This document shows, piece by piece, positions 1 through 18,560 of a stretch of 64,000 nt of DNA (positions are counted from its first letter, which is position 1; every line of letters begins with the position of its first letter). Below the pieces are notes generated by a model that saw only the letters and a list, made by a program, of their open reading frames with translations, had not been told where the DNA came from and did not search any database. The stretch lies in NCBI GenBank assembly GCA_963823335.1, contig CAWGLD010000001.1, forward strand, positions 1,408,001 to 1,472,000, read 5' to 3'. The position numbers and the translations under genes are program-made. This DNA is from an uncultured delta proteobacterium (GTDB taxonomy: Bacteria > Desulfobacterota > Desulfobacteria > Desulfobacterales > B30-G6).

Positions 1-830
1 TTATCGCCAAGGTATGTTAAATACTCCTGTTGCGCTGCTTGATATTGTTCTTTGTAAAGAAACGCATCTGCTTCACACTTGGGTGGGGGCTTCTTATCAA
101 AAGATGGCTTTATCAGCAAAAAATAGACACCTGTTGACAGGAGGAGGAGAACGATCGCGGTAAAGAATAATTTTATTCGTCTATCGGAAGATTGTATTCT
201 TTGATCTCCTGAGACATTCTCTGAAGCTGAATGTGTTTCCCCTCGAGCCGCCGGAGTTTTTACAGGAAGTAATTTGTTTATTGCTTCATCCACCGTTAAA
301 ACCGATATAAGCTCTATTCCTTTTTGTAAGGTGAGAGCCTTTTTATCCGGTTCAATCTCTTCTTCATTCGCGGCCGGATAGAAAAATTTGTCCCCCTGTT
401 GCAGGCAATCAATAGCGGCATCAAGCTTTTTGTTGATGCCATTAACCCTTCTGACCTTACACCCTGTTTCATCGATCGTGCCGGTTGCAGCAATCGAGCA
501 TGTAAGGGATTGCCCCGTTTTGGCTCGATAAATCTCCTGGGCGAATTTCAAAGAAAAACCAAGACCCGCACTCGCCCCCAAAACTTTTGTGTTTACATCT
601 GTATCGTCAAACCGGCACCGAAGATAATAGTCCTCTCTTTCGCCAATATAGTTCAATCTTCTGAGACTCTGGTAAGCACAATGGATCCCCTCGTCAGCAG
701 AATTGCGAATTTGGGCATCTGATAGACTGGCGGGGAAGTCGATTTTAATGCGACACCCGGGATCGGAATCGTAGAATGAGTAAACTAACCGATTGGACGT
801 CCCATCATCAAAGAGTGCATAGATATCCAT
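1..830 (-). CDS. Membrane-anchored protein with N-terminal Lon-type (S16) protease domain, one TM helix and a TPR-like extracytoplasmic part; 3' end runs off the window
   Basis: Not in the ORF track because it has no stop in the window. Hand translation from ATG 830 (MDIYALFDDG...) stays open to position 3. It contains VLGASAGLGF...SIAATGTIDETGCKVRRVNGINKKLDAA...FFYPAANEEEI, matching Lon_C motifs [42 protein letters not shown] of the Lon at 16125-18560, then hydrophobic LFFTAIVLLLLSTGVYFLLI and ADAFLYKEQYQAAQQEYLTYL. Confidence 0.85.
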   Translation of the reverse strand, partial: MDIYALFDDGTSNRLVYSFYDSDPGCRIKIDFPASLSDAQIRNSADEGIHCAYQSLRRLNYIGEREDYYLRCRFDDTDVNTKVLGASAGLGFSLKFAQEIYRAKTGQSLTCSIAATGTIDETGCKVRRVNGINKKLDAAIDCLQQGDKFFYPAANEEEIEPDKKALTLQKGIELISVLTVDEAINKLLPVKTPAARGETHSASENVSGDQRIQSSDRRIKLFFTAIVLLLLSTGVYFLLIKPSFDKKPPPKCEADAFLYKEQYQAAQQEYLTYLGD

Positions 831-835
831 AGGTT

Positions 836-1378
836 CTATCTGTCGCCTGGTCGGACTGTTAAACATTTAAGGTTAACTGCATCCAGATTCTCTATCTCCT
901 GAGAAGCTTTACCATGGAAGATGATACCTTCAAGACAGATAAGGCCCTGCCCATCCAGTAATTGGACGGACTTTCCTTCCAATGTCTTTTGGTAGCCTTT
1001 TCCCACCTCTAACACCACAAGACCCTTATCTGTTTCATGAATATTCCGTCTTATCGTAACCGAATATTTACCTCCCTCAAGTCGAAACTTCTTTGGCCAC
1101 TCTGTTTCTGAGGTAGCTGCCTTGGGCAGCGCAAAATCCCAGGCTTCGGCGTCTTTCCGGCACTCGATTAAATCTTTGATTTCCTGAAGACATGCGGGAC
1201 ACCTTGTCAGGTGGTTCAAGTGCGAGTCTTCCAATTCGATGCCCTGGGGTTGGATCAGCAGCTCATACAGCTCAGCAGAAGGTATATGTTTACCTGCATC
1301 TCCATTCAAACCATAGGCTTGCCATGTTTCTAAAGCTTCTTTAAGGGTAATTCGTTTATTCATATTTGTGTCTTTCAT
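836..1378 (-). CDS. Putative soluble zinc-binding anti-sigma factor (ZAS / zf-HC2)
   Basis: H-x24-HLTRCPAC fits the (H/C)x23-26-HxxxCxxC ZAS motif; lies directly downstream of a sigma factor; no TM segment. Confidence 0.75.
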   Translation of the reverse strand: MKDTNMNKRITLKEALETWQAYGLNGDAGKHIPSAELYELLIQPQGIELEDSHLNHLTRCPACLQEIKDLIECRKDAEAWDFALPKAATSETEWPKKFRLEGGKYSVTIRRNIHETDKGLVVLEVGKGYQKTLEGKSVQLLDGQGLICLEGIIFHGKASQEIENLDAVNLKCLTVRPGDR

Positions 1379-1412
1379 TACAAGTTTAATTACAATGTAC
1401 CATTTAATCTGT

Positions 1413-2177
1413 TTAATCTGAAAAAATTTCTATAATGTCCGTTACACACCATCCTTTGCCTTCAAGGCAGTACTTCATCTTTCCCCTGGCTTTTATTTCG
1501 AGTCTGTGGACCTTATTAATGTCTATGGTAAGAATCTGAGCTGTCTTTTTAAGCGTTAACTCTCCTAAAGATCTTAATGACAAAACGGCTCTTTCATAAT
1601 GCTTAAGGGCATTTTTTAAACATTCATCCACGTCCTTCCAAAGTTCCCTTTTTGCTATTTCCGTTTGGGGGTCAGGGTTTTCAAAAGCGGGAAGCTCCTG
1701 TGTAAAATTCAATGGCCTCTTTTCGCCGGGTGGATATTTTGCCTCGAGGGAAAAACCAATTTTTTTAAGTCCCTGCAGTCTTCGCAATTCATTTTCCGAG
1801 ACATCCAAAGCCTCTGACAATTCAAAAGTCGAAGGTTTCCTATTTAAAGATTGAATTAACAATTTTTCAGCCTGATCTAACGCTTTTACAGCTGCCCTGT
1901 TTTTTTGGGTCAAGGGATCTTGTTTTCGTAGATAATCTTTAATAGCCCCATCAATGTAGAGACTGGAAAAGGTAGAAAAGGAAACACCTCTTCTGGGATC
2001 ATATTTGTTAGCCGCTTTTACCAAACCGATAAACCCTTCTTGAATAAGATCATTCAAATCGATTTTATTCCTGGCCGCTTCTGGAAAGTTATTATATAAT
2101 TTCTTGGCCTTATAGACAGCCAGTCCGTAGTAATCATCCAAATCAATGATTTGTGAAGAGGTCATGTGTCTTTTCAT
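1413..2177 (-). CDS. RNA polymerase sigma-70 family factor, FliA/WhiG-like (group 3)
   Basis: Region 2 DLIQEGFIGLVKAANKYDPRRGVSFSTF, region 3 LNRKPSTFELSEALDVS, region 4 HTH LTLKKTAQIL. Confidence 0.9.
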   Translation of the reverse strand: MKRHMTSSQIIDLDDYYGLAVYKAKKLYNNFPEAARNKIDLNDLIQEGFIGLVKAANKYDPRRGVSFSTFSSLYIDGAIKDYLRKQDPLTQKNRAAVKALDQAEKLLIQSLNRKPSTFELSEALDVSENELRRLQGLKKIGFSLEAKYPPGEKRPLNFTQELPAFENPDPQTEIAKRELWKDVDECLKNALKHYERAVLSLRSLGELTLKKTAQILTIDINKVHRLEIKARGKMKYCLEGKGWCVTDIIEIFSD

Positions 2178-3675: not shown

Positions 3676-5517
3676 GTGAAACGACTTACCAGAGCGATCA
3701 TTTTGGTACTTATTTTTGCGACGATTGGAGGGATTCTATTTCGTTTCCTCTGGCCTGGCGGGGAGCGCCTTACTATTGTTCACTGGACTACCGGTCACCT
3801 GATGCGAACCGGTTTGTTGCCGGAAATGGCTGCCGAGTTCAACCGAACTGTCCACAGAACACGTTCCGGTAAACGGATAGAGATCAAGGTTATCTACTAC
3901 GGTTCATCGGAGCAGGCAGAAGACCTGCTCTCTCGGGTAACTCGCGGCGTGCCTGTCGACCGAAACCGTCCAAATCCAACGATCGTCACACCGTCGGCAG
4001 CTCACTGGCTTGTGCCGGTCAATCATGCGGCTGGCCGCACCATCGTAGACCTCAAAACCGCTAAAAGCATCGCGCGGGCATTTATTGGCATCGTAACTTA
4101 TCAGGAAATGGCGGAATGCCTGGGATGGCCAGATAAAAAGATCGGTTATGCTGATATCGTAGCTCTGCGAAACGATCCACTCGGCTGGGCCGGTTATCCC
4201 TGTGCCAAGGCCGAATGGGGGCAACGCCCGCTCGTTGCCTACACCGATCCCATTACTTCAAGCACAGGTCGCAGCGTTTTGTTTACCCTGTACGCCATCG
4301 CCGCTGGAAAAGCTCCAGATCAACTGACCGTTTCCGATGTCAGAGATCCTAAGGTGGTTGACTACGTCAAACAATTCCAGAAACTGGTAGATCACTATAT
4401 GATCGGCACGACAGTATTGAATACAAAGATTCATCAGGGCCCTCGTTTTGGCCACTTCTTTCTCATGCCCGAGGACAACCTTATCCACCTGTATGAGGGG
4501 ACCGAACGCGCCTTCATCAATGGCGTAAAAGTGAGTGCTCCGCCCATCGAACAGCCGATGGTCATGATGTACCCGAAAGAGGGATCTATGGCGCGGAACA
4601 ATTGCGCCGGTATCGTTCAGGCATCCTGGGTGACTGAGGATCACGGGGAAGCAGCACATAAATGGGTTGACTTCCTCCGCGAAGATGACCAGCAGCGTGC
4701 CTTTATGAAGGCAGGTTTTCGGCCAGCGACGAATCTTCCCCTTTCGAGAACCATTAGCGGAAAATATGGATTGGATCCGACCCAACCGACCATTGAGTTC
4801 AATCCTGCGCTGATTGACCCTAAAGTTGCAGCTGCGATTGATGACGCCTGGGAAGACGTAAAAAGGCCTGCCATCGTAACATTCGCCATGGATACATCTG
4901 CTTCCATGCAAGGAGATAAGCTTACGCAAGCAAAAGATGGCATGATCCGGGCCCTGGACAGCATGGCAAAGAATAACCAAATAGGTTTCATTTGCTTCGA
5001 TTCGGAAGTTACCACTCGTATCCCAGTAGGTCAGCTTCAGAGGAACCGTTTCACGATTGCAAATACCTTAAAGGGGTTGCAGGCGCAAGGCGGAACGGCA
5101 CTCTACGACGCGATTAAAACGGCGGTCGAGATAACAGATGGAGCGCCCGGAGATGAAAATGCCATTCGTGCCGTGGTCGTCCTGACGGATGGTCAGGCAA
5201 ATCGAGGTGCGACTGCGTTACACGACCTCATACAGCTGATGTCTAATAGCGAGATCCCTATCCAGGAATTCAGAGGCTTTCAAGAGGATCAAACAGCTAT
5301 AGATGAACAGGGAAGACCCGTTAACAGGAAAAAAATTATCGGTACGACTTTGAGCATGGAAACCAACCACTCGGTCCAGATCTTCTTCATCGGGATCGGT
5401 GAAGATGCAGACATGGAGGTTGGCCGAATGCTGGCTGAGGCAACAGGTGCAGAATTCCAGGGAACGACCCAAAAGGATTTGGCTGGAGTACTCGAAGAAT
5501 TCAGTAAATATTTTTAA
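3676..5517 (+). CDS. Membrane-anchored extracellular solute-binding domain plus VWA domain protein
   Basis: N-terminal TM anchor, SBP-like motifs (DPITSSTG, GFRP), MIDAS DTSAS...T...TDG; RBS AAGGAGG before GTG. Confidence 0.85.
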   Translation: MKRLTRAIILVLIFATIGGILFRFLWPGGERLTIVHWTTGHLMRTGLLPEMAAEFNRTVHRTRSGKRIEIKVIYYGSSEQAEDLLSRVTRGVPVDRNRPNPTIVTPSAAHWLVPVNHAAGRTIVDLKTAKSIARAFIGIVTYQEMAECLGWPDKKIGYADIVALRNDPLGWAGYPCAKAEWGQRPLVAYTDPITSSTGRSVLFTLYAIAAGKAPDQLTVSDVRDPKVVDYVKQFQKLVDHYMIGTTVLNTKIHQGPRFGHFFLMPEDNLIHLYEGTERAFINGVKVSAPPIEQPMVMMYPKEGSMARNNCAGIVQASWVTEDHGEAAHKWVDFLREDDQQRAFMKAGFRPATNLPLSRTISGKYGLDPTQPTIEFNPALIDPKVAAAIDDAWEDVKRPAIVTFAMDTSASMQGDKLTQAKDGMIRALDSMAKNNQIGFICFDSEVTTRIPVGQLQRNRFTIANTLKGLQAQGGTALYDAIKTAVEITDGAPGDENAIRAVVVLTDGQANRGATALHDLIQLMSNSEIPIQEFRGFQEDQTAIDEQGRPVNRKKIIGTTLSMETNHSVQIFFIGIGEDADMEVGRMLAEATGAEFQGTTQKDLAGVLEEFSKYF

Positions 5518-16068: not shown

Positions 16069-16124
16069 CGTCATAAAATTGTGTAACAATTGTATGACCT
16101 AAATTAAGTCATAGAGAGAGAATC

Positions 16125-18560
16125 ATGGTTAACATGCCCAAAATTTTTAAAAGTGAAGAGAGTGTCTCAGACGGGCATCTGCTTCCATTGCTGCCCCTGA
16201 GGGATATCGTTATTTTTCCCTATATGGTGGCCCCCCTGTTTGTGGGTCGCGAAAAATCCGTCAGCGCCCTTGCCACGGCAATGGGCAGCGACAAGCGGGT
16301 CTTTCTTGCCACCCAAAAAAAAGCAAGTATCGACAGCCCCAGCGAAAAAGATATCGGTAAGATAGGTGTTATCGGCAATGTCATGCAGCTGCTTCGGCTT
16401 CCTGACGGTACGGTCAAGGCTCTGGTGGAGGGAAAACAGCGGGCACGTATCACGCGTTTTATAAAGAACGAAGAATTTTTCCAGGTCGAGGTCGAAGAAC
16501 TCAAAGAACCAGTTGAGTCCAGCACCGAAATCATGGCACTGGAAAGAGCACTACTCGAAAATTTTGAAGAGTATGCCAAGAACAACAAGAGTATTTCAAA
16601 GGAACTGACAAGCAGCATTTCCGCCATCTCGGATCCGTCACAGCTGGCGGATACGATCGCCGCCCACTTTTCTTTTAAAATCGAAGACAAGCAAAAGTTA
16701 TTGAATACCCTGTCCCTGGTGGAAAGACTTTCGCTCATGATGACGCTGACCAAAGTGGAGACAGAGGTCTTAAGAATGGATCAGCGTATCAAGGGCCGCG
16801 TCAAGACTCAGATGGAAAAGACCCAGAAAAACTATTATCTGAACGAGCAGATGCGTGCCATACGAAAAGAGATGGGAGCGGAAGAGGACCCCGGCAATGA
16901 GTTGAAGGATCTTGAGAAGCGGATCAAGAGAACACGAATGTCCAAGGAGGCCACGGGCAAGGTCTGGCAGGAATTTCGAAAACTCAAGATGATGACACCC
17001 ATGTCGGCTGAGGCCACGGTGGTTAGAAACTACATCGATTGGCTCATAAGCCTTCCATGGTTTAGCCGGAGCAGGGTAAACAACGATATTGATCGGGCGG
17101 AAGTCATTCTCAACGAGGATCATTACGGTCTGGGAAAACCCAAAGAACGCATTCTTGAATATCTGGCGGTTCAAAGCCTGATGAAAAAGATCCGCGGGCC
17201 CATCCTTTGCTTTGTGGGTCCGCCGGGTGTCGGCAAGACATCCCTGGCAAAATCGGTTGCAAGGGCAACCGGTCGAAAATTTGTGCGCCTTTCCCTGGGC
17301 GGGGTCCGTGACGAAGCTGAGATTCGAGGACATCGCCGGACCTATATCGGAGCCATGCCGGGGAAAATTATCCAGTCTCTCAAAAAAATTGGTGCCAATA
17401 ATCCGGTTTTCTGCCTGGATGAAGTCGATAAAATGAGTATGGATTTTAGAGGGGACCCCTCGTCTGCCCTGCTGGAGGTGTTGGATCCGGAGCAGAACTT
17501 CAGCTTCAATGATCACTATCTGGATGTCGATTATGATCTCACGGATATTCTTTTTATCACCACGGCCAACACGCTGCCGGATATCCCTCTGCCCCTGCAG
17601 GATCGGATGGAGATAATTCGACTGCCTGGTTATACAGAGTACGAAAAATACCATATCGGCAACGATTTTCTGGTAACGAAGCAGATAAAAATGAACGGTC
17701 TTGAAGGAAAGAAGGTTCAGTTTGCCAAAAACGCTTTGTCGACGATCATACAGCGCTACACACGTGAGGCCGGTGTTCGTAATCTGGAGCGTGAGATTGC
17801 CTCCATCTGCCGGAAGGTTGCCCGGGAGATCCTCAAAAAGAAAACAGACAAGCCCTATCGGATTACCGGTAAGACCGTGCAGAAACTGCTGGGACCGCCT
17901 CCCTTCAAACACAGCCAGATAGAAGAAAAAGATCAGGTCGGTCTTGTAAATGGCCTGGCGTGGACACAGGTCGGAGGCGAGCTGCTGGCAGTGGAGACGC
18001 TGATGATGCCGGGAAAAGGTAAGCAGATCATTACCGGCAAACTTGGGGATGTCATGAAGGAGTCTGCCCAGGCGGCCATCAGCTATGTCCGCTCACGGTC
18101 AAAACAGTTGATGATCGACCAGGAATTCTATAAAAATTTCGATATCCATATCCATATTCCGGAAGGTGCAATTCCCAAGGACGGACCCTCGGCTGGTATT
18201 ACCATGTGTACCGCCATCGTGTCGACCCTGACCAAACGACCGGTTTACAGGGATCTTGCCATGACCGGCGAGATCACCTTGCGCGGACGCGTACTTGCTA
18301 TCGGCGGCTTGAAAGAAAAGATACTGGCGGCTCACCGGGCGGGCATCAAGAAGATCCTGATTCCCATCGAGAATAAAAAGGATCTGAGGGATATCCCCAG
18401 GACCATATCCAAACAGCTCGAGATCGTCCCCGTGGAACACATGGATGAGGTTTTGACCCATGCGTTGATTCTAAAGGAAGGGGAAACCACTTTTCAGCGT
18501 AGCGACATGATGTTCGATCTGTCAGCGCAGGCACCTGAAGAGAGGGCCTCCTTGATTTGA
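16125..18560 (+). CDS. lon: Lon protease (LonA)
   Basis: LPLRD N-domain, [24 protein letters not shown]. Confidence 0.98.

Follow-up and report, generated by a model that had tools for sequence, protein, structure and literature searches.

What does a Lon-type protease with a membrane helix do in the same gene row as a sigma factor and a putative anti-sigma factor? This question is raised by the left end of a 64,000-nucleotide stretch of DNA from an uncultured delta proteobacterium, a relative of sulfate reducers from marine sediment (Desulfobacterales; B30-G6; GCA_963823335.1, contig CAWGLD010000001.1, positions 1,408,001-1,472,000, forward strand), hereafter the window. Three minus-strand genes are packed tightly there: one for a sigma-70 family factor of 254 residues (1413..2177), one for a soluble anti-sigma-like protein of 180 residues (836..1378; hereafter the middle protein), and a third that is open at the left end of the window and has only its 5′ part inside it (1..830, residues 1-276 of 733). 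A previous annotation made from the letters alone (the sequence-only reading) had taken the row for a new transmembrane signalling system in which the third protein cuts the anti-sigma factor. The three-gene module is real and conserved, it is kin to the protease-gated anti-sigma/sigma pairs, and its sensor, which joins a membrane helix to an NLR-like module, is unusual and rare. We lean, without strong conviction, towards reading the cassette as a proteolytic sigma switch that is built like CalpL-CalpT-CalpS and consists of a membrane-tethered Lon-like protease with a STAND/NLR-like nucleoside triphosphatase (NTPase) as its regulator.

The open reading frames (ORFs) are separated by gaps of 34 nucleotides (1379-1412) and 5 nucleotides (831-835), as the sequence-only reading had given them. 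The smaller value holds when the third gene starts at the ATG at 828-830, and position 830 is the start in all N-terminally complete homologues aligned; an alternative ATG upstream, at 866, would make the gene overlap with that of the middle protein. Leftward extension of the contig recovered the complete third ORF from the genome (C1:1406629-1408830). It extends 1.37 kb to the left of the window, where the remainder of the gene occupies C1:1406629-1408000, and encodes 733 amino acids from the homologues' start or 745 from the upstream ATG.

The first 193 residues of the third protein (252..830, minus strand) form a Lon-type (S16) proteolytic domain, on which AlphaFold2, structure comparison, and the family profile agree. 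The model of this region had a predicted local distance difference test (pLDDT) value of 96.0 and a predicted template modelling score (pTM) of 0.92. VIA-align superposed it on the protease domain of LONP1 with Z 20.2 and a root-mean-square deviation (rmsd) of 2.2 Å over 172 of the 193 residues, and on that of E. coli Lon (1rr9) with Z 20.0 and rmsd 2.4 Å over 176 residues; BrxL (Z 16.9), MtaLonC (Z 16.1), and RadA (Z 16.0) ranked lower. Foldseek found 188 matches at E ≤ 0.001 with Lon proteolytic domains on top (1rr9, template modelling score (TM) 0.72, probability 1.00). When PDB sequences were searched with a 59-sequence profile of the family, A. fulgidus LonB came first (1.7e-11) and 23 further Lon or Lon-like entries followed, among them MtaLonC at 8e-7. 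A profile of the 11 close sequences found A. fulgidus LonB at 1.4e-5.

The putative catalytic serine, Ser87 in the motif GASAG, is encoded by AGT at 570..572, and the putative catalytic lysine, Lys135, by AAG at 426..428 (both on the minus strand); both codons were checked. Neither residue varies in any of the 59 sequences aligned, and across 98 sequences both are at least 90% conserved; a second serine six residues past Ser87 is not conserved in the wider family. In the model, Ser87 lies just ahead of the helix 89-105 and Lys135 inside the helix 132-142, a placement that fits Lon. The spacing between them is 48 residues, against 43 in the housekeeping Lon of the window (Ser698, Lys741), and the hidden Markov model (HMM) alignment to LonB puts the serine four positions off; a helix that is longer by four residues explains both the shift and the wider spacing. 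The genome encodes two canonical Lon proteases, one of 820 residues at 16098-18557 (plus strand) of the window and one of 811 residues (G000:C4:140254-140628), and these are its only other matches to the Lon-like profile. The dyad had been named in the sequence-only reading together with the absence of an AAA+ module. That absence holds for the region ahead of the protease domain, which starts at residue 1, and fails for the region behind the membrane helix, where an NTPase follows.

The middle protein was found to be soluble and to carry the motif of a zinc anti-sigma factor, in keeping with its previous annotation. Its highest hydropathy over 19 residues is 1.02, so it has no hydrophobic helix. 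Nineteen homologues were collected, including the query. In an alignment of 17 of them, among which are four relatives at 21-23% identity, W19, H31, L37, H56, L57, C60, C63, A87, G103, Y105, and G151 are invariant. The putative ligands H31, H56, C60, and C63 (codons within 1190..1288, minus strand) are arranged as H-x24-H-x3-C-x2-C, which we take to be the ligand pattern of zinc-binding anti-sigma (ZAS, zf-HC2) domains. A linker of variable length connects the zinc-motif domain with a beta-rich C-terminal domain (approximately residues 93-175, 854..1102, minus strand) and ends in a conserved Ala-Ala. Its motif, L84-P-K-A87-A88-T-S90 (1109..1129, minus strand), reads LPKAA(T/A)S in the close family and LEAAA(T/S)(T/S)S in the distant one, with the variable-length insertion ahead of it. 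A87 is invariant, and the motif is a candidate cleavage site. No Pfam or NCBIfam family matched the middle protein above threshold.

The sigma factor contains regions 2, 3, and 4 and is group-3-like, with Pfam matches to Sigma70_r2 (5.7e-15), r4 (8e-6), and r3 (3.8e-5; 24.1 bits, below the cut-off of 25.3). It has no hydrophobic helix (highest 19-residue hydropathy, 0.56). The description "FliA-like" given to it from the letters alone stands as an approximate likeness; it is not a true FliA, since its score against NCBIfam FliA_WhiG (TIGR02479) is 121.8 bits, whereas the cut-off is 189.6.

The three genes are kept together as a unit across deep divergence, from close metagenome loci to distant genomes of the phylum. 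Both close loci with upstream sequence (L003 and L005) show the order sigma factor, anti-sigma-like protein, protease; in a further locus (L004) the 5′ part is missing and the genes downstream are unrelated. We also surveyed 401 genomes of the phylum (Thermodesulfobacteriota), that is, 400 besides the one that contains the window. The 59-sequence profile matched 32 of the 401 at E ≤ 1e-10, mostly through proteins with DUF4384 only or through canonical Lon. Matches to the N-terminal domain were present in six of the other 400 genomes, and in five of these six an anti-sigma-like ORF lies directly upstream (G123, G089, G273, G215, and G281, the last cut by the contig start). The sigma factor is the next ORF in all three genomes in which the contig reaches that far (G123, G089, and G273); the contigs of G215 and G281 end first. 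The proteases of these distant cassettes carry other C-terminal regions, either a Pro/Ser/Thr-rich linker with an unknown domain or DUF4384. In G281, an anti-sigma-like fragment (L041:2-385, plus strand; E 4.8e-14) precedes a protease composed of Lon-like domain, helix, and DUF4384, and the gene pairing is thus not limited to one type of C-terminal domain. Identities between the window cassette and the distant ones are 29% for the sigma factor (over 209 residues with that of the L038 cassette), 21-23% for the middle protein, and 34% over 79 residues for the Lon-like domain. Conservation of the unit at such low identities argues that the three genes are functionally linked.

Three of the distant cassettes have a further feature in common. 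A conserved row of four secreted or lipoprotein-like genes of no known family is divergent from the sigma gene (L038:7712-11003, L039:1-3328, and L040:4572-8001) and is a candidate regulon. Nothing similar to this row was found in the window.

Docking of the Lon-like domain with the middle protein was predicted by a model of the protease:anti-sigma complex, a contact that the previous annotation had presupposed. The score was 0.73 (runs, 0.74, 0.73, and 0.72), against 0.00 for the best of three controls. Of 80 solved complexes, 58 attained this mark, as did 2 of 110 mismatched pairs; the counts apply only approximately here, since the model was built on our own alignments of the two families. 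The runs agreed in 100% of the contacts, with a partner pLDDT of at least 68. On the protease, the predicted interface comprises residues 18-23, 31-34, 37, 69, and 71 of the first beta-sheet, and on the middle protein, residues 94-95, 110-114, 119-120, 122, 151-152, 154, 158-159, and 161 of the beta domain, just behind the Ala-Ala linker. The model supports, rather than establishes, that the middle protein binds the Lon-like domain.

A single segment of the third protein is strongly hydrophobic (residues 221-240, 111..170, minus strand; mean hydropathy of 2.45 over 19 residues), and the one membrane helix of the sequence-only reading was thereby upheld. The TPR-like region that was supposed to follow it was not: of the part past the helix, 36 residues had been visible, and the complete gene encodes there a STAND-like P-loop NTPase of about 480 residues. 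The linker and first helix of this module are encoded at 1..110 (minus strand), and its motifs, Walker A, Walker B, GRGE.F, and HNRP, lie outside the window. In 20 NTPase sequences, Walker B (D249, D252, E253), G282-R283-G284-E285 of GRGE.F, and the H..RP motif are invariant, with at least 90% conservation for the Walker A residues G127, G129, and K130. Pfam gave matches below threshold to AAA_24, NPHP3_N, nSTAND5, nSTAND3, and NACHT. In the model of residues 225-745 (521 residues; pLDDT, 87.1), the hydrophobic segment stands free as a helix, and the linker after it is modelled with low confidence. A wide VIA search with this model placed NLRC4 first (Z 12.7; rmsd, 4.0 Å; 279 residues aligned; model residues 84-521), followed by the archaeal ATPases PAB2304 (Z 12.0) and SSO1545 (Z 11.6), plant NLRs and NLRP3, and Avs3 and Avs5 (Z 8.8-9.1); the Z value for NLRC4 is moderate, and AAA+ proteins of the ORC/Cdc6 type also score Z 9-10. 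Foldseek found weak AAA+ matches with the same model (TM ≤ 0.27), and the look-alikes in the Atlas were clusters of NACHT, NPHP3_N, nSTAND4, and nSTAND3. Neither a C-terminal repeat sensor (TPR, WD40, LRR) nor a SAVED domain was detected: by Pfam and the model, a small beta-rich region closes the protein; past the helix, Pfam finds P-loop families and nothing else; and the structure matches are to STAND and AAA+ proteins. We read the module as a short, divergent STAND-like module. It occurs in only one of the 401 genomes sampled, that of the window, with no second copy in the other 400. A P-loop look-alike in an Armatimonadota metagenome-assembled genome, which came up in the contig search, was rejected as not being a relative.

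The Lon-like domain itself belongs to a larger family. Close relatives are very few: 5.8 billion clusters yielded 11 proteins, the query included, at identities of 62-77%. An exhaustive profile search gave 447 proteins at E ≤ 0.001, 184 at E ≤ 1e-10, and 45 at E ≤ 1e-30. Among the 150 matches listed, most match through the N-terminal domain only and have one hydrophobic segment at about residues 200-240. Domains were scanned in those 98 of 159 proteins that match the N-terminal domain, mostly longer than 300 residues, with fragments and NTPase-only proteins left out. DUF4384 was found in 51 of the 98, Lon_C in 9, PD40 in 6, nSTAND1 in 5, and WD40 families in 2-3. Four relatives with a Walker A near residue 250 (P0125, P0128, P0130, and P0147) lack a helix near residue 210; they are probably among the nSTAND1 members and are probably soluble Lon-like/STAND fusions. 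Conversely, eight of the listed proteins (P0013, P0061, P0063, P0077, P0081, P0106, P0121, and P0156) have an N-terminal helix and the NTPase without a Lon-like domain. Below threshold, Pfam found AAA_16 in four of these eight, NPHP3_N in all five that had any match, and ATPase_2 and NACHT once or twice each. Since the C-terminal partners vary across the relatives, the Lon-like domain appears to be a mobile output module that is mostly combined with a membrane helix and sometimes carried by soluble STAND proteins.

The distribution of charges around the helix was examined by counting Lys and Arg in the 15 residues on each side in 86 distant relatives from P0014-P0159 (at least 300 residues, a window with a hydropathy of 1.9 or more within residues 170-360, not NTPase-only). 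On average, 4.05 such residues precede the helix and 1.79 follow it; the N-terminal flank is the richer one in 74 relatives and the poorer one in 3, with a tie in 9. Among nine members of the close family it is richer in 5, tied in 2, and poorer in 2. The commonest design in the family is a Lon-like domain, one helix, and a variable C-terminal domain, with a charge bias that puts the protease inside, and the proposal of a transmembrane signalling protease fits this design. The same location follows from the partners, since the sigma factor and the middle protein are soluble and the protease should therefore be cytoplasmic. Two elements of the sequence-only reading, ATP independence of the protease and an extracytoplasmic signal, are unproven for this copy because its sensor is a STAND-like NTPase and not a TPR ectodomain.

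On these grounds a sequence of events can be proposed. The N-terminal domain of the middle protein, with its zinc motif, would hold the sigma factor, while its C-terminal beta domain is predicted in silico to be docked at all times on the first beta-sheet, at the N-terminus, of the Lon-like domain. Upon a signal, the NTPase may bind or exchange nucleotide, oligomerise as STAND proteins do, and so align the Lon-like domains. The Ser87-Lys135 site of an adjacent subunit could then cut the flexible linker in trans at A87-A88, by analogy with CalpT. The fragment that holds the sigma factor, now ending in Ala-Ala, would be removed by housekeeping proteases, and the freed sigma factor would bind RNA polymerase. 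Signal-dependent oligomerisation, the cut in trans, and the release of the sigma factor are proposed because the parts map one to one onto the CalpL scheme, and A87-A88 is the presumed cut because cleavage of CalpT exposes a C-terminus ending in LAA. In the CalpL filament, one subunit binds CalpT and the next cuts it, and release of CalpS depends on the exposed LAA end, which the authors liken to the VAA terminus of RseA (bioRxiv 10.1101/2024.05.08.593097).

Several observations weigh against this switch. The contacts listed for the heterodimer include neither Ser87 nor Lys135, and cleavage in trans is thus an assumption. The third protein misses every curated family threshold in Pfam and NCBIfam: its best NCBIfam matches, SepM S16 (E 6.3e-4) and LonB (6.7e-3), are both far below the cut-off, and Pfam Lon_C does not match it even at E ≤ 10 (at E ≤ 0.001 it matches 9 of the 98 relatives). 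As for the middle protein, Pfam zf-HC2 is significant in none of the 17 members, the best value being an E of 0.052 in one of them; its profile found no relative in PDB; and the Atlas offers only a lead with a score of 0.88, to a cluster in which 15% of the members have zf-HC2. Its identity as a zinc anti-sigma factor is hence suggested by the motif, beside which these are weak leads. A zinc anti-sigma domain is also an unusual partner for a sigma factor with region 3. One of the six distant genomes (G143) has neither partner gene next to the protease. Metagenomes of marine sediment, salt marsh, and estuaries from 12 studies contain cassette DNA, and short contigs from four RNA libraries of three studies cover parts of all three genes at 95-100% likeness, which weakly supports their expression; however, these contigs bridge no gene junction and leave parts of the operon uncovered, and RNA libraries can contain DNA. 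Finally, the charge bias together with the single helix would put the P-loop NTPase where little ATP is available, outside the cytoplasm.

This last point leads to a bolder and rather doubtful account: the STAND/NLR-like module may lie outside the membrane and there detect extracellular nucleotides or a comparable danger signal, and its oligomerisation may be relayed through the helix to cytoplasmic Lon-like domains that cut the anti-sigma factor. The soluble partners, the excess of Lys and Arg on the N-terminal flank, and a pair of shared cysteines point to such an extracytoplasmic receptor. Only two cysteine columns are common to the close and the distant NTPase-only homologues, one just past the helix (C264) and one close to the C-terminus (C704), and these two could form a disulfide if the module lies outside the cell. 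In the NTPase-only homologues, the N-terminal side of the helix has more Lys and Arg in 7 of 8, and such positive tails predict that the NTPase is outside the cell there as well. To our knowledge, a P-loop NTPase outside the cell has no precedent, and we have not seen an extracytoplasmic NLR-like domain described, which this one would be if the account is true. Alternatively, the helix may tether the protein without spanning the membrane, with protease and NTPase both cytoplasmic.

The surroundings of the cassette differ from those of its relatives. On one side lie a gene for a phosphatase of the Ppx/GppA family with a signal peptide and one for an Fe-alcohol dehydrogenase; on the other, genes for a 232-residue protein of unknown family and for a solute-binding/von Willebrand A fusion. 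None of these flanking genes is similar to the flanks of the distant cassettes or of L004. The phosphatase gene (L001:7469-8497, window -2531..-1503, minus strand; Pfam 2.6e-27) lies 131 nucleotides downstream of the third gene, and its product, which has an N-terminal segment like a signal peptide, is probably exported, a curious neighbour for a nucleotide-binding module that is possibly extracytoplasmic. It was not counted as a part of the system because it has no counterpart downstream of the protease in L004. The fusion gene (3676-5517, plus strand) encodes 613 residues with an SBP_bac_8 periplasmic solute-binding domain joined to the von Willebrand A domain. No sigma-28-type promoter was seen upstream of the sigma gene by eye.

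A role in defence was also considered and is improbable, though not negligibly so. Under this explanation, the STAND module senses an invader, such as a phage, in the cytoplasm, the helix does not span the membrane and is a tether or an effector that damages it, and the protease cuts either the anti-sigma factor for transcription of defence genes or many proteins for abortive infection. The patchy distribution, with the NTPase in 1 of 401 genomes and the N-terminal domain in 6 of the 400 others, would suit such a system, as would the fusions of the Lon-like domain to nSTAND1 (5 of 98 relatives) and to WD40 families (2-3 of 98). In addition, both characterised protease/anti-sigma/sigma cascades are CRISPR-linked defences, and DUF4384, the commonest partner of the Lon-like domain, occurs also in the C-terminal domain of Csx30 and is described as a frequent fusion partner of proteases. 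On the other hand, PADLOC gave no system-level match, and no Csm1/Cmr2 (Cas10) was found above the cut-off in the genome, which is 93.87% complete, unlike the case of CalpL, which is linked to type III CRISPR. The immediate neighbours are metabolic or of unknown family and not defence genes. The protein also lacks a C-terminal repeat sensor, and its helix is hydrophobic enough that it should insert in the membrane.

It is less probable still that the zinc-motif protein itself senses redox state or zinc, in the manner of thiol-based anti-sigma factors, and that the Lon-like membrane protein leaves it uncut and serves only as a co-regulated partner or scaffold. Some zinc anti-sigma factors do respond to oxidation, and the invariant His/Cys pattern of the middle protein would agree with such a sensor; the invariance of Ser87 and Lys135 in the 59 sequences, however, argues for catalysis, the conserved docking domain and Ala-Ala linker would stay unexplained, and the two genes stay paired in cassettes whose proteases have other C-terminal domains. 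A classical envelope-stress pathway, with site-1 and site-2 proteases acting on a membrane-spanning anti-sigma factor as DegS and RseP act on RseA, shares the logic of anti-sigma proteolysis, and the VAA end of cleaved RseA is reminiscent of the Ala-Ala end, but the pathway is hardly credible because the anatomy found already contradicts it, the anti-sigma-like protein having no membrane helix and the protease being of the S16 Lon type rather than S1 or M50.

The switch that we favour can be compared with known systems on several sides. RseA with DegS, RseP, and ClpXP resembles it in that cleavage of an anti-sigma factor signals to the sigma factor and a new Ala-Ala end draws cytoplasmic proteases; RseA, however, spans the membrane and is cut by two unrelated proteases in turn, whereas the cassette has a soluble anti-sigma-like protein and a membrane protein that is itself the protease. 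Lon-like proteases that lack a working ATPase or have a membrane anchor, such as MtaLonC and S16 proteases of the SepM/YlbL type, share a Ser-Lys domain outside the canonical LonA arrangement. LonC differs in keeping a degenerate AAA-like module ahead of the protease, and SepM and YlbL are outward-facing proteins with a PDZ domain. We know of none of these proteases that is paired with a sigma factor and an anti-sigma factor. The STAND/NLR receptors (NACHT, Avs, nSTAND) also have an N-terminal effector; it stands ahead of a nucleotide-binding, helical, winged-helix module, to which the NTPase shows a moderate structural likeness. In contrast to them, the third protein lacks a repeat sensor at its C-terminus, has a membrane helix between effector and NTPase, and reaches no curated STAND threshold. 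In the literature searched we found neither a membrane Lon-like protease with an anti-sigma and a sigma factor nor a Lon-type effector on a STAND protein; two surveys of STAND proteins (eLife, 2021; Nature, 2026) do not mention Lon in their main text, although supplements may list such architectures.

Characterised systems with the proposed logic do exist, although the sequence-only reading knew of none with this architecture. One is CalpL-CalpT-CalpS, the other the type III-E protease acting with Csx30 and a sigma factor; both are soluble and CRISPR-linked. In the type III-E system (TPR-CHAT/Csx29-Csx30-sigma), the protease also cuts a linker of the sigma-binding protein and frees the fragment that carries the sigma factor, and some C-terminal domains of Csx30 are DUF4384 domains like those common in the Lon-like family. 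The differences are that the type III-E protease is caspase-like and RNA-guided and that the system has no membrane component.

The likeness to CalpL-CalpT-CalpS goes further. Both consist of three adjacent genes, both contain a Lon-type protease that has no AAA+ unfoldase and is fused to a module of an oligomerising class, and in both the C-terminal part of the anti-sigma factor is on the protease, here by prediction. CalpT is cut in a flexible region that leaves an Ala-Ala end, and the conserved Ala-Ala linker and the docking model fit the same arrangement here. CalpL itself was not reached in PDB by the profile of the N-terminal domain at E ≤ 1 or in the lists of structure matches, which leaves room for a similarity. 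The two systems differ in the sensor, which is a SAVED domain in CalpL and a STAND-like NTPase behind a membrane helix here; in the sigma factor, which has region 3 here, whereas CalpS is like the extracytoplasmic function (ECF) sigma factors; and in the anti-sigma factor, which has a zinc-motif domain here. CalpT is described as a homologue of MazF. Protease/anti-sigma/sigma cascades have so far been characterised only as soluble additions to CRISPR systems, and the cassette belongs to a wider, uncharacterised family in which Lon-type proteases that lack an unfoldase are coupled to a variety of sensor domains and, at least in the sampled Thermodesulfobacteriota, also to a sigma/anti-sigma pair of their own. 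If the proposed mechanism holds, a single protein would provide the route from signal to cut to transcription, which extends the CalpL principle beyond CRISPR, and the copy in the window would represent a bacterial NLR that is tethered to the membrane and acts on transcription, or else a case of an NLR-like domain located outside the cell.

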